Origin: Anaerolineae bacterium
GTDB taxonomy: Bacteria > Chloroflexota > Anaerolineae > Aggregatilineales > Aggregatilineaceae
Assembly: GCA_016930015.1 (NCBI GenBank)
Contig: JAFGHR010000121.1
Span: 11,701 to 75,700 of the forward strand
Length of the DNA stretch: 64,000 bases
Direction: 5' to 3'
In this document: one piece after another, positions 37,064 to 48,646 of the stretch
How the letters are laid out: each line of letters starts with the position of its first letter
Numbering within the stretch: position 1 is the stretch's first letter
Notes under the pieces: generated by a model
Told to the model about the DNA's origin: nothing
Database searches by the model: none
Seen by the model: the letters and a program-made list of their open reading frames with translations, nothing else
Translations under genes and position numbers: made by a program

Positions 37064-37135
37064 GGCGACGTAGCTCAGCGGTAGAGCAGGGGACTCATAA
37101 GCCCTTGGTCGTGTGTTCAAATCACACCGTCGCCA
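37064..37135 (+). tRNA. tRNA with CAU anticodon (elongator tRNA-Met, or tRNA-Ile2 if lysidinylated); no encoded CCA
   Basis: A manual cloverleaf gives acceptor GGCGACG/CGTCGCC, D stem GCTC/GAGC, anticodon loop CTCATAA and T arm GTGTG-TTCAAAT-CACAC. G1-C72 is paired, so it is not an initiator. Confidence 0.9.
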
Positions 37136-37142
37136 CACCTGA

Positions 37143-44923: not shown

Positions 44924-46777
44924 CTACTGCGGTTCAGCCAGCGGTCGAATCTGGTACAGATCACCGTCAGCAAAGCCCCGCTTGCGGTAATAGGCGCGTG
45001 TGCCCACCGACGATATCACGGCCAGCCGCGCATAACCCCGTTCAGCCGCGATGTCTACCGCGCGTTCGATCAACAGCGTGCCCAGTCCGCTGTGCTGGGG
45101 ACGGCCCGGCACGTCTTCCCCGACCGACAGCGCCTGTCCGTATACGTGCACTTCGCGGATCATCGCGGCGCCTGCCAGCTCGTCCAACAGGGGCGCCTGC
45201 TCCGGCAGCGAGAGCCGCAAAAACCCGGCGATGCGGCGGTCAGCGGTGATGATCTGCAAAAACACTTCTTCCCCGATGCTGGACGCATACCACACTTCAT
45301 CCAGGTGCAGCGCATCAAGGGACACCGTCTGTCCGCGAATCTCCCTGGCACGGATATCAGGGCTGCGTTTCCCCTGGGCTTGCAGCGCACGGTCCACGAC
45401 CTGCCGAAAGTTCGTGGTCATATTTCCGGTCACAATATCCGTTGACGGGATATCGCGCACTACGCGGGTCAATCGGCAGTATTCCGGTGTGTGCTGAAAA
45501 CACGCTGTCAGCACATGCAGCAGTTCGTCATGTGTGTAGGGCTGCCAGCCGCCCTCACGATATACCTGCATCAGTTCGGCGCTTTCGATCAGCGAGCACG
45601 GGTAAATTTTGAGTTCGTCCGGGCGGAAACCGGGATCGGTGAACAAGCGCTGGTAGTCTACAATATCCGCTTCCGGCGTCGAGCCGTACAAATTCGGCAT
45701 CCAGTGGGCGTGAATCTTAAAACCAGCCTGCCGCAGCAGTTTGACCGCTTCACACGTCCGTTCGACCGTGTGCCCGCGTTTGTTTTTCCGCAGGATGTTA
45801 TCATCCAGGCTTTGAAAACCGATCTGCACTTTTGTCGCGCCCAACCGCCGGATGCGGATCACTTCATCAACGGTCAGGTTGTCCGGGCGTGTTTCGATCA
45901 CCAGACCAACACAGCGGCATGGCGCGTGTTCGTTTTCCCGGTGCGCCGCTTGCAGCTCGTCCCACGTTGCGTATTCGTCTACGAGCGAACACTCGCGCTC
46001 ACCACGCGCGATAGCCTGGGCCTGCTCCCTGGAACGGTGAATTTCATCCCGGTAAATGACCTGCACGACCTGGTTATAGGTGCGGTCGAACCGGGTGCCG
46101 TCGATCACTTCGACAGCTTCCGTTTCCACTACTTCAGGTGACGGGTAAAACTGTGATACCTGTCGCAGAGCGTCCCAAACCTCAGCCGTGTGATCGATGC
46201 CTTTCCCGAAATCATGCAGCGCGTCAAACGCCCGCTTGATAAACCAGACCTGGTACGTTTCGGGATAAAACGACCATGTGCCGCCCAGAATAATGAGTTC
46301 GATCTTGTTGGTGGGATGCCCGCCGCTGTACAGCGTTAACAGGCGTGAATAGGTCTGCAAATAGGGATCGAAGGCGTTTTGCTCGGCCCGCTGCGCCCCC
46401 GGCTCACTTGACAGATAACTTTTGGGCATACGGACATCGTTCGGGCAAAAAATACACTCACCGGGGCACGGAAACGGCTTGGTGAGCACCGTTACAGGAG
46501 TCACGCCGGACATGGTGCGCACCGGTTTTAAGCGCAGGCGCTCGATCACAGACGGGTCAAACGGTGGCAGTCCGCCCGTCCCGGCAAATGCGCGGTACGC
46601 CTGGATCAGATCGTTCTTACTGAACAGGCCGCGCCCATCTTTGGGATAGTCCTTTAGCAGACTCACCAATCGACGCTGCGAAAGGTTGGGTTCCCGGACC
46701 ACAGCGTGTAAGATCGCTGTCAACGGCTCGCGATACAGGTCTAGATCAATCGGAGGTTTAAACGTTTTACTCATCAC
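44924..46777 (-). CDS. elp3: Elp3-type radical SAM / GNAT tRNA U34 carboxymethyl-modifying enzyme
   Basis: The radical-SAM cluster motif is CPGECIFCP. The C-terminal GNAT is QHSGLGTLLIERAVDIAAERGY...YYRKRGF. Length is ~617 aa. Confidence 0.88.
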   Translation of the reverse strand: MMSKTFKPPIDLDLYREPLTAILHAVVREPNLSQRRLVSLLKDYPKDGRGLFSKNDLIQAYRAFAGTGGLPPFDPSVIERLRLKPVRTMSGVTPVTVLTKPFPCPGECIFCPNDVRMPKSYLSSEPGAQRAEQNAFDPYLQTYSRLLTLYSGGHPTNKIELIILGGTWSFYPETYQVWFIKRAFDALHDFGKGIDHTAEVWDALRQVSQFYPSPEVVETEAVEVIDGTRFDRTYNQVVQVIYRDEIHRSREQAQAIARGERECSLVDEYATWDELQAAHRENEHAPCRCVGLVIETRPDNLTVDEVIRIRRLGATKVQIGFQSLDDNILRKNKRGHTVERTCEAVKLLRQAGFKIHAHWMPNLYGSTPEADIVDYQRLFTDPGFRPDELKIYPCSLIESAELMQVYREGGWQPYTHDELLHVLTACFQHTPEYCRLTRVVRDIPSTDIVTGNMTTNFRQVVDRALQAQGKRSPDIRAREIRGQTVSLDALHLDEVWYASSIGEEVFLQIITADRRIAGFLRLSLPEQAPLLDELAGAAMIREVHVYGQALSVGEDVPGRPQHSGLGTLLIERAVDIAAERGYARLAVISSVGTRAYYRKRGFADGDLYQIRPLAEPQ

Positions 46778-46820
46778 TCACACAACATCGCCCACTCACT
46801 ATCAACCGTACAATACTAAC

Positions 46821-47528
46821 ATGGATGAATCAACAGTTAAACGCCTGAATCAGATCAATCGGCAGTTTTACCGCGTCACTGCCACCGATTTTGACGAATC
46901 CCGCAGCCAGCCCTGGGCCGGATGGGACACACTGCTGCCGTACCTCAAACCGCCGCTGTCGGTGTGTGACACCGGGTGTGGCAACGGGCGCTTTGGCGTG
47001 TTTCTGGCCGATAACCTGGGGCCGGACCTGTCCTACGTCGGTATTGACAGCAACTCAACGCTGCTGGACCGGGCGCGGGTAGCGCTCAGCGCGGTAAAAA
47101 ACGCCCGGTTTGAGTTGATCGACGTGGTCGAACAGCCGTTTGACCTCGGCACATTCGACCTGGTCGCCGCGTTTGGCGTGCTGCACCACATCCCCGGCAG
47201 CGGTCAGCGCCGCACATTTATGCAGCAGCTTGCCCGGTGTGTCGCACCGGGGGGACTGCTGGTTTTCGCGGCGTGGTGCTTTTTCGAATTCGAACGTTTT
47301 CGAAACCGCCTTGTGCCCTGGCCGGATGACATTCGGGTCGAAACACATGACTACCTGCTGGACTGGCGCCGGGGTGAGCGGGCCATCCGCTACTGTCACT
47401 ATATCGACGCTGCCGAACACGCCGACCTGATCGCCGCCGCTGGTTTGACTGAATTAATCACGTACCGGGCCGATGGCCGCACAAACGATATCAACCGTTA
47501 TAGCATACTCCGGCGAGACTCCCCATGA
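46821..47528 (+). CDS. class I SAM-dependent methyltransferase, Trm9/ALKBH8-MT-like
   Basis: The landmarks are DFDESRSQPW, SAM motif I CDTGCGNGRF, FGVLHH and RYCHY. It is divergent from elp3 across a 43-nt gap. Confidence 0.75.
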   Translation: MDESTVKRLNQINRQFYRVTATDFDESRSQPWAGWDTLLPYLKPPLSVCDTGCGNGRFGVFLADNLGPDLSYVGIDSNSTLLDRARVALSAVKNARFELIDVVEQPFDLGTFDLVAAFGVLHHIPGSGQRRTFMQQLARCVAPGGLLVFAAWCFFEFERFRNRLVPWPDDIRVETHDYLLDWRRGERAIRYCHYIDAAEHADLIAAAGLTELITYRADGRTNDINRYSILRRDSP

Positions 47529-48646
47529 AAAACACCGGGCACGACTTCACCGCGCCGCACGCGTTACACGACGACCTGATCGCGTGGTTCGAGGCGCACA
47601 AGGCCGATTTACCCTGGCGGCGCACACATGATCCCTACGTGATCTGGCTGTCGGAGATCATGTTACAACAAACGCAGGTAACCACCGTAATCCCCTATTT
47701 TGAACGGTTTCTGGAACGTTTTCCCACCGTGCACGCATTGGCAAATGCGCCGCTGGACGACGTGCTCAAGCTGTGGGAAGGGTTGGGATACTACAGCCGG
47801 GCGCGTAACCTGCACCGCGCCGCCCGGATGGTTTTGAACGACCTGAACGGCGTGTTCCCATCCACAGTGAACGCTTTGCAGCAGCTTCCCGGTGTGGGCC
47901 GTTACACGGCAGGCGCGATCGCGTCGCTGGCGTTCGGCCTGGATGCGCCGCTGCTGGACGGGAACGTGATCCGCATCCTGACGCGGCTGTTCGACATAAC
48001 CGGCGATGTGGGCTTAACCGCCACCAAAAACACGCTCTGGGAACTGGCCGGGCGGCTGGTTCCGAGCGGGCGCGCCGGTCCGTGGAACGAGGGCTTGATG
48101 GAGCTTGGGCGGCGCATCTGCTCGCCGAAATCGCCGGATTGCGACCGGTGCCCACTGTCCGCACACTGCGAAGCATACCGGATGGGAACCCAGCACGAGC
48201 GCCCGGTCAAACGCCCCAAAGCCAGAACACCGCACTATGACGTAACCGCCGCCGTGATCGAGCGTGACGATGGTTCCGTTCTCATCGCGCAGCGCCCGCA
48301 TGACGGTATGTTAGGCGGGCTGTGGGAGTTTCCCGGCGGTAAGCGTGAACCGGGCGAATCGCTGCCCGATTGTCTTCGGCGTGAAATCCGCGAGGAACTG
48401 GGCATCACGATTCAGGTTGGCAGACAGTTAGGCACGGTCCGCCATGCGTATTCGCATTTTCGCATTACGTTGTATGCGTTTGCGTGCAGGCTGGTCAGCG
48501 GCACACCGCACGCCATCGAATGCGCGGATTGGACCTGGGCCACGCTTGACGAACTGGGGCAATACGCCTTCCCGGTAACCGATCAGAAAATCATCCGGAT
48601 GCTGCGCAACGGTGAGGGGCAGCTCGGCATGGACCTGTGGACCTGA
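47525..48646 (+). CDS. mutY: A/G-specific adenine DNA glycosylase MutY with a C-terminal domain carrying a complete Nudix box
   Basis: Motifs are LSEIMLQQTQV, HhH LPGVGRYTAGAI, the Fe-S cluster CSPKSPDCDRCPLSAHC, YSH, and the Nudix box GGKREPGESLPDCLRREIREELGI. Confidence 0.9.
   Translation: MKNTGHDFTAPHALHDDLIAWFEAHKADLPWRRTHDPYVIWLSEIMLQQTQVTTVIPYFERFLERFPTVHALANAPLDDVLKLWEGLGYYSRARNLHRAARMVLNDLNGVFPSTVNALQQLPGVGRYTAGAIASLAFGLDAPLLDGNVIRILTRLFDITGDVGLTATKNTLWELAGRLVPSGRAGPWNEGLMELGRRICSPKSPDCDRCPLSAHCEAYRMGTQHERPVKRPKARTPHYDVTAAVIERDDGSVLIAQRPHDGMLGGLWEFPGGKREPGESLPDCLRREIREELGITIQVGRQLGTVRHAYSHFRITLYAFACRLVSGTPHAIECADWTWATLDELGQYAFPVTDQKIIRMLRNGEGQLGMDLWT

Follow-up and report, generated by a model that had tools for sequence, protein, structure and literature searches.

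To our knowledge, 5-methoxycarbonylmethyluridine at the wobble position of transfer RNA (mcm5U34 in tRNA) has until now been reported only in eukaryotes and a single archaeon. The Elongator-type wobble pathway to which this nucleoside belongs is linked to human neurodegeneration and cancer. In eukaryotes, 5-carboxymethyluridine (cm5U) is methylated by Trm9-Trm112 or ALKBH8-TRMT112 (EC 2.1.1.229). Work from 2008 already described a gene cluster of Elp3 and Trm9 in Sulfolobus solfataricus and homologues of Trm9 in certain archaea (PMC2584109), and mcm5U together with Trm9-Trm112 activity was shown in Haloferax volcanii in 2018 (PMC6144793). Archaeal Elp3 alone makes cm5U in vitro (reviewed in PMC7663514). 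These archaeal Elp3 and Trm9 proteins (H. volcanii HVO_1032; the S. solfataricus cluster) are the closest known system-level analogue of the locus described here, in which the genes for a stand-alone Elp3 and a Trm9-like methyltransferase lie head to head. The locus is part of a 64-kb stretch of DNA from a metagenome-assembled genome of an Anaerolineae bacterium (Chloroflexota) related to Aggregatilinea, the whole of which is called the window below.

The usual bacterial pathway at wobble uridines is that of MnmE/MnmG (and MnmC), which leads to 5-methylaminomethyl- or 5-carboxymethylaminomethyluridine, (c)mnm5U34 (PMC7663514). Its target is likewise C5 of U34, presumably in overlapping tRNAs, but enzymes and chemistry are unrelated (GTPase and flavin adenine dinucleotide with glycine, versus radical S-adenosylmethionine (SAM) chemistry with acetyl-CoA in Elp3). 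The only characterised bacterial Elp3 is that of Dehalococcoides mccartyi (DmcElp3, 5L7J), for which no methyltransferase partner is described. Recent reviews of the Elp3 field treat bacterial Elp3 as a Dehalococcoides curiosity and report no evidence for cm5U-type nucleosides (xcm5U) in bacteria; a 2026 paper mentions bacteria only as 'numerous bacteria' (PMC13315578). In the literature searched, the coverage of which is incomplete, neither a bacterial Trm9 nor this pair of genes was found described.

We consider it likely that the two genes form a tRNA wobble-uridine module in which Elp3 makes cm5U34 and the Trm9-like enzyme converts it to mcm5U34, probably independently of Trm112. New with respect to the known Elp3-to-Trm9 pathway would be that bacteria have it, encoded by a conserved cassette of two genes whose methyltransferase probably needs no Trm112. 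The homology of both proteins, the conservation of catalytic residues and the linkage of the genes carry this reading. The locus consists of the following parts:

44924..46777, minus strand: elp3, encoding a stand-alone Elp3 of 617 amino acids with radical-SAM and GNAT/lysine acetyltransferase (KAT) domains (TIGR01211, Pfam, PDB match 5L7J)
46778..46820, no strand: divergent intergenic region of 43 nucleotides, presumed to be a shared or overlapping promoter region
46821..47528, plus strand: gene for a Trm9-like class I SAM-dependent methyltransferase of 235 amino acids, a predicted tRNA (carboxymethyluridine34-5-O)-methyltransferase (profiles, AlphaFold2 (AF2), Foldseek)

The minus-strand Elp3 and the divergent methyltransferase, separated by 43 nucleotides, had already been placed at these coordinates by the first-pass annotation of this DNA, and we confirm them. 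The elp3 gene starts with GTG, with an ATG one codon further on, and the ATG start of the methyltransferase gene is also kept in the cultured relative Aggregatilinea lenta. The two genes may be co-regulated from the short intergenic region. It contains no match to the sigma-70 consensus, and neither a structured RNA nor a compositional island or anomaly was found at the locus.

The divergent pairing of Elp3 and methyltransferase is strongly conserved across at least six phyla. A scan of GTDB (one genome per species) with a profile of the methyltransferase family yields at least 80 loci from Chloroflexota, Patescibacteria (Candidate Phyla Radiation, CPR), Myxococcota/'Deltaproteobacteria', Acidobacteriota (including Ca. 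Multivorans), Spirochaetota, Fermentibacteria and metagenome-assembled genomes (MAGs) labelled 'Pseudomonadales'; many of the loci are from MAGs, with taxonomic labels that may be unreliable. Upstream sequence is sufficient in 73 of the loci listed, to which the following counts refer:

Elp3 directly upstream on the opposite strand, gap below 500 bp (gaps mostly 14-185 bp): 41/73
Elp3 upstream and divergent, with an insert of 0.5-2.5 kb: 13/73
Elp3 elsewhere within 10 kb: 2/73
no Elp3 in the flanks (10 kb): 17/73

Altogether, Elp3 is upstream and divergent in 54 of the 73 evaluable genomes (41 + 13), and outside Chloroflexota it is linked in 32 of 34 evaluable loci. In the reverse test, an Elp3 alignment was searched against an independent collection of metagenome contigs. 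Here the methyltransferase is divergent and upstream of Elp3 in 54 of the 64 evaluable loci among the matches listed. The gene-neighbourhood co-occurrence raised in the first-pass annotation is therefore strong in both directions and across phyla. These results point to a widespread clade of bacterial Elp3 that is hard-wired to a Trm9 relative.

Two observations concern the taxonomic labels of these loci. Between a 'Spirochaetaceae' MAG (L044) and a Myxococcota MAG (L037), Elp3 identity reaches 82%, which points to an error in binning or to horizontal transfer of the cassette in recent times. The Elp3s of the 'Pseudomonadales' MAGs are closest to CPR Elp3 (62-63% identity), so their labels look doubtful, or the region has been transferred. 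A RecQ-family helicase adjoins Elp3, beyond its far end, in CPR genomes and 'Pseudomonadales' MAGs (L019, L023, L027, L029, L053, L056, L071).

The sequence of the 617-residue minus-strand product identifies it unambiguously as Elp3. It matches TIGR01211 with 457 bits (cut-off 350) over residues 77-608 and contains the Pfam domains Radical_SAM, Radical_SAM_C and GNAT (Acetyltransf_1), in agreement with the full Elp3 architecture proposed in the first-pass annotation. Its closest solved relative in a PDB search is DmcElp3 (315 bits), followed by archaeal and eukaryotic Elp3s. Although DmcElp3 has the same radical-SAM and KAT architecture, the window Elp3 differs from it by an extended N-terminus, an insertion of 85 residues and the absence of three zinc-binding cysteines. 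Its elements are, all on the minus strand:

46445..46468: radical-SAM [4Fe-4S] cysteines C104-x3-C108-x2-C111 (CPGECIFC), read from the sequence
45080..45097: KAT acetyl-CoA motif QHSGLG, residues 561-566, aligned with QHRGLG of DmcElp3
46526..46777: extended N-terminus, residues 1-84; the DmcElp3 alignment begins at residue 85
45956..46210: insertion of ~85 residues in the radical-SAM domain, residues 190-274; alignments to all solved Elp3s break between residues 189 and 275
45347-45364: zinc-site positions, residues 472-477, with S472, D474 and A477 instead of three cysteines

The cysteine motif is CX3CX2C and not CX4CX2C, as it had been written at first. All three radical-SAM cysteines are kept in 50 of 51 methyltransferase-linked Elp3s, and the glutamine, histidine and both glycines of the QHSGLG motif in 49-51 of 51. 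At least 65 residues align in the extended N-terminus in 51/51. Archaeal and eukaryotic Elp3s use this extension for tRNA binding (PMC6367351), and by analogy with archaeal Elp3 the N-terminus of the window protein may have the same role. Linked bacterial Elp3s thus have an N-terminus of the archaeal/eukaryotic type that DmcElp3 lacks, suggesting that DmcElp3 might be an atypical model for bacterial Elp3. The radical-SAM insertion (at least 40 residues) occurs in ~60% of the linked bacterial Elp3s, is missing in ~30% and is missing in every solved Elp3; it is specific to the bacterial clade and contains a conserved YNQxV. The full zinc-binding cysteine motif is absent from 31 of the 51 linked Elp3s, while 20 retain all three cysteines. 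As eukaryotic Elp3s are also without the zinc motif, it is no defining mark of the Elp3 family as a whole.

For the methyltransferase, Pfam and NCBIfam return generic class I matches only, which cover residues ~40-150 (the Rossmann core) and lie far below the cut-offs. UbiG (28 bits, cut-off 103), UbiE (22 bits, cut-off 216), CmoB and others match this core alone; CmoM is not among the NCBIfam matches listed. Single-sequence searches are not decisive, and family profiles were used instead. The family comprises 671 clusters (50% identity level) that match over their full length at E<=1e-30, 61 sequences of which were aligned into the profile A2. Among 177,635 PDB sequences, A2 retrieves Yarrowia lipolytica Trm9 (YlTrm9, 5cm2_Z) first (E=8.6e-15), and Trm9 is the only match whose alignment spans the region from the N-terminal TR..W through the C-terminal RYxH. 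A fungal Trm9 set (20 source-named proteins, collected with the deposited YlTrm9 sequence) and the bacterial family align by hhalign over 203 columns, nearly the full length of both (probability 99.55%, E=2.3e-23). Single template sequences compared head to head with the bacterial family profile by hhalign rank as follows:

Yarrowia Trm9: E=2.5e-19, score 127, 201 columns
E. coli UbiG: E=6e-13, score 87, 104 columns (core only)
E. coli UbiE: E=2.9e-9, score 65, 183 columns
E. coli CmoM: E=5.3e-9, score 63, 193 columns

Hence, where the first-pass annotation had set Trm9 against UbiE and other families, Trm9 comes first in the PDB and beats UbiG, UbiE and CmoM. CmoM (SmtA) is a bacterial class I enzyme that carries out an analogous methyl-esterification of a wobble-uridine carboxylate, from uridine-5-oxyacetic acid (cmo5U34) to its methyl ester (mcmo5U34). 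Its family is another one, its alignment matches none of the catalytic motifs of Trm9, and it acts after CmoA/CmoB, whereas the window enzyme is proposed to act after Elp3.

The AF2 model of the window methyltransferase is of very high confidence and has a Rossmann-type fold (predicted local distance difference test, pLDDT, 96.7). In a Foldseek search of 350,542 chains with this model, Trm9 (5cm2_Z) ranks second, behind 3sm3, an uncharacterised methyltransferase of Methanosarcina mazei. We set 3sm3 aside as the closest functional relative: the fungal Trm9 profile does not retrieve it, and it is therefore treated as a generic structural neighbour. Taken together, these comparisons support the assignment of the window methyltransferase as a Trm9 relative. 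Automatic annotation at JGI names many close homologues 'TRM9', and at NCBI they are generic methyltransferases. A Trm9-like N-terminal Y..I...YSQTR and HH are also present in 3ege_A of the PDB (Anabaena variabilis, 'putative methyltransferase from antibiotic biosynthesis pathway'), and both solved structures, 3ege and 3sm3, may merit re-examination.

The function of Trm9 residues is known from Saccharomyces cerevisiae Trm9 (ScTrm9), in which R29, D72, H116, W145, W168, R241, Y243 and N271 are required for activity and H115 contributes more weakly (Létoquart et al., PMC4678810). R29A keeps ~5% of wild-type activity and H116A is inactive. In the model proposed there, R29, H116 and R241 grip the carboxylate of cm5U, H115 and N271 read the uracil and W145 stacks on it; more precisely, N271 would read O2/N3 of the uracil, and H115/H116 would orient the carboxylate and uracil O4 (PMC4678810). 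In the hhalign register, the equivalents are:

ScTrm9 R29: window R28
ScTrm9 D72: window D76, the acidic SAM-binding residue, invariant in A2
ScTrm9 H115/H116: window H122/H123
ScTrm9 W145: window W152
ScTrm9 W168: window W182
ScTrm9 R241: window R190
ScTrm9 Y243: window C192, the only one of the nine that is not identical
ScTrm9 N271: window N225

Thus, eight of the nine functional residues are identical, and they show little or no variation within the bacterial family (A2, hhalign register and locus proteins). The motifs to which they belong are, all on the plus strand:

46869..46916: N-terminal lid helix and substrate motif Y17...F24..R28...W32, equivalent to ScTrm9 Y18, F25, R29 and W33 (hhalign)
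46968..46988: SAM-binding motif I, DTGCGNG, residues 50-56, aligned with Trm9 DVGCGNG; D50, G52 and G54 are invariant in A2
47184..47189: His122-His123, equivalent to ScTrm9 H115/H116, invariant in A2
47388..47399: R190-Y191-C192-H193, equivalent to ScTrm9 R241-Y242-Y243-H244 (profile alignments)
47493..47495: N225, equivalent to ScTrm9 N271, invariant in A2

The locus proteins are the methyltransferases translated from 66 independent loci. All of them keep R28 and R190 (66/66), and H122 (62/66), H123 (61/66), W152, D177 and W182 are each kept in 60-63 of 66. Methyltransferases that are unlinked to Elp3 retain the same catalytic residues. Most of the motif matches to Trm9 that had been proposed in the first-pass annotation stand in these alignments, namely DFDESRSQPW with HFSxTRYKPW, DTGCGNG with DVGCGNG, VLHH..RR with VVHH..RR and RYCH with RYYH. 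The exception is the match of LVPW to FVPW, since the tryptophan of the catalytic VPW in Trm9 aligns with LLDW of the family (W182) and W167 of the window protein with 'RRGW' of Trm9.

Compared with eukaryotic Trm9 and ALKBH8, the window enzyme shares the class I SAM fold with the N-terminal lid helix, the profile homology over its full length, the residues corresponding to R29, D72, H115, H116, W145, W168, R241 and N271, and the genetic partnership with Elp3. It differs in being bacterial, in lacking the RRM and AlkB domains and in having a cysteine in place of Y243.

On this basis, the following mechanism is proposed. The stand-alone Elp3 would use its radical-SAM [4Fe-4S] cluster and acetyl-CoA to place a carboxymethyl group on C5 of U34, giving cm5U34 without other Elongator subunits; eukaryotic Elongator differs by its Elp1, Elp2 and Elp4-6 subunits and lacks the head-to-head gene arrangement. 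The Trm9-like methyltransferase might then grip the cm5U carboxylate via R28, H123 and R190, recognise and stack on the uracil via H122, N225 and W152, and transfer a methyl group from SAM to form the methyl ester mcm5U34. The head-to-head arrangement, with its presumably shared regulatory region, could ensure that the enzyme making the intermediate and the finishing enzyme are produced together. The bacterial methyltransferase would probably work without Trm112, unlike the eukaryotic and Haloferax Trm9.

Several points weigh against this reading. According to a 2020 review, direct evidence for xcm5U in bacteria is lacking and the sole bacterial Elp3 tested is weakly active (PMC7663514). Single-sequence phmmer of the PDB places Yarrowia Trm9 (5cm2_Z) only 18th, and with the A2 profile the margin of Trm9 over the next PDB match is modest (58 versus 52 bits). 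An hmmsearch of the PDB with a profile restricted to the C-terminal substrate-binding region finds no Trm9; hhalign of this region alone finds the same register as at full length, but weakly (E=0.008, probability 5%). The residue matches in the C-terminal region hence depend on the full-length alignment and are consistent with homology while not independently significant. Within that region, position 192 is cysteine in 47, valine in 12 and alanine in 5 of the 66 locus proteins and never tyrosine, and the N225 position is asparagine in 47/66 and serine in 13/66 (~20%). In 17 of the 73 listed genomes, no Elp3 occurs within 10 kb of the methyltransferase gene; most of these organisms are closely related to that of the window. 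Finally, the correlation between pairwise distances of Elp3 and methyltransferase (r=0.51, reached by 0/2000 permutations), which speaks for the linkage, may simply reflect shared phylogeny.

The alternative that survives best retains the same pathway but lets the methyltransferase depend on a zinc-ribbon activator of the Trm112 type whose gene lies in another part of the genome. Every characterised Trm9, eukaryotic or from Haloferax, needs Trm112 (PMC4678810, PMC6144793), in Haloferax in vivo, and bacterial Trm112-like proteins exist and have been proposed as methyltransferase partners (PMC6144793). The screen for Trm112 in the genome of the window organism covered 64 kb. No Trm112-like open reading frame (ORF) is found in the window (motif screen) or in the 80 listed locus neighbourhoods (clustering, insert inspection), in line with the first-pass annotation, which had seen none next to the pair. 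The second line of evidence is the interface. The hydrophobic core of the Trm9-Trm112 interface is formed by V59, F78, V102, V103 and A110 of YlTrm9; among fungal Trm9 proteins, these five positions are 100% hydrophobic. The bacterial equivalents are polar or charged in 93, 82, 54, 74 and 46% of the family (46-93%), in a mapping that relies on alignment through loop regions, so that the window enzyme, unlike eukaryotic Trm9, is without the conserved hydrophobic Trm112 patch. Moreover, no conserved small ORF stands beside the pair in the 80 listed genomes, and the unit conserved across phyla, including the genome-reduced CPR, is the pair alone. Polar interface positions and the absence of a Trm112-like gene nearby suggest a stand-alone enzyme that probably acts without the activator, and we regard a distant Trm112 as unlikely. 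With regard to Haloferax, the bacterial pair would therefore differ both in its Trm112 independence and in its form as a divergent cassette conserved in at least six phyla.

Somewhat less probable still is that the methyltransferase is coupled to Elp3 but makes a product other than mcm5U, by modifying another Elp3-derived intermediate or atom or an RNA substrate that is not tRNA. The replacement of ScTrm9 Y243 by Cys, Val or Ala and of N271 by Ser in a minority would be compatible with this, as would the clade-specific insertion of 40-100 residues in linked Elp3s, many of which are also without the zinc site. What bacterial Elp3 makes in vivo is not known (PMC7663514), and the pathway has undefined branches, as seen from what becomes of cm5U when yeast or Haloferax lacks Trm9 (PMC3110198, PMC6144793). 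However, the residues that would hold the carboxylate (R28, H123, R190) and read the uracil (H122, N225, W152) are the most conserved positions of the family, which argues for a Trm9-like substrate geometry. A generic small-molecule or lipid methyltransferase (UbiE/UbiG/Methyltransf_11 type) placed beside Elp3 by chance, or a DNA-repair partner of mutY, is highly improbable, for although the family databases match only generic class I enzymes (UbiG, UbiE, CmoB and others on the Rossmann core) and the methyltransferase stop overlaps the mutY start, these matches stay far below their cut-offs and on the core, Trm9 alone is aligned over its full length with the catalytic motifs, and the linkage data (Elp3 adjacency in 54/73 and 54/64 listed loci of at least six phyla, mutY adjacency only in A. 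lenta) already contradict it.

The preferred reading, an Elp3 that makes cm5U34 and a Trm9-like enzyme that esterifies it, can be extended beyond the window. Members of at least six phyla (Chloroflexota, CPR/Patescibacteria, Myxococcota, Acidobacteriota, Spirochaetota and Fermentibacteria) might carry a self-sufficient cassette of a stand-alone Elp3 and a Trm112-independent Trm9 that installs mcm5U34 with no accessory subunit of Elongator and possibly replaces MnmE/MnmG, which would represent a minimal natural Elongator pathway; we hold this extension tentatively, as a little less than evenly balanced. Should mcm5U be the product, the third domain of life would also possess the wobble-uridine pathway of the eukaryote/archaea type. 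A two-protein system without Elp1, Elp2, Elp4-6 and Trm112 would be attractive for mechanistic and structural work, and would raise the question of how such bacteria share labour with, or replace, MnmE/MnmG. The cultured A. lenta has an identical locus (L001), making the prediction directly testable.

The other neighbours of the pair are not part of a conserved unit. The gene downstream of the methyltransferase is:

47525..48646, plus strand: mutY, context only and outside the conserved module (TIGR01084, 338 bits, above cut-off)

The methyltransferase TGA (47526-47528) overlaps the mutY ATG (47525-47527) as ATGA. This overlap had been noted in the first-pass annotation and is real, but a mutY link is kept in no relative other than the closest, A. 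lenta. A functional mutY link is rejected, as mutY adjacency occurs only in A. lenta (L001, 6701-6708) among 81 listed loci. The overlap, common only to the window and A. lenta, is thus a lineage-specific operon arrangement and not a functional module. The sole RNA gene in the window is a tRNA with a CAT anticodon at 37064-37136 (tRNA-Met according to ARAGORN), which lacks U34 and is hence no candidate substrate of the elp3/methyltransferase pair.

Neighbour clustering and inspection of inserts reveal no third conserved partner, with no other gene present in more than 9 of the 80 listed loci. Inserts between Elp3 and methyltransferase are heterogeneous and, outside Acidobacteriota, membrane-protein-, kinase- or sigma-factor-like, as judged by sequence with no profile search. 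In Thermoanaerobaculia/Ca. Multivorans (Acidobacteriota; L034, L038, L040, L046, L080), a short-chain dehydrogenase/reductase-like gene (281-339 amino acids, co-directional with the methyltransferase, judged in the same way with no profile search) lies between the two.

In three Chloroflexota loci, trmB, encoding the tRNA m7G46 methyltransferase (TIGR00091, above cut-off), is found directly downstream of or near the Trm9-like gene, and in a fourth the two domains share one frame:

L007, 10821-11831: trmB
L009, 11575-12561: trmB
L069, 5641-6723: trmB
L017, 10001-11722: Trm9-like and TrmB domains in one in-frame ORF of 574 amino acids (Chloroflexota)

The L017 ORF is real at the level of the assembled sequence, but could be an assembly or frameshift artefact. 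Other apparent long fusion ORFs were discarded as mostly over-extensions of ORF calling in high-GC DNA. The adjacent, near or fused trmB in these four Chloroflexota loci is a further association with tRNA modification.

In Anaerolineae genomes in which Elp3 is non-adjacent or not evaluable, the Trm9-like gene has immediately behind it a conserved ORF of ~110 amino acids that matches nothing in NCBIfam:

L005, 10897-11238
L006, 10735-11145
L008, 1099-1440
L010, 10795-11115
L015, 1551-1967
L020, 10681-11166

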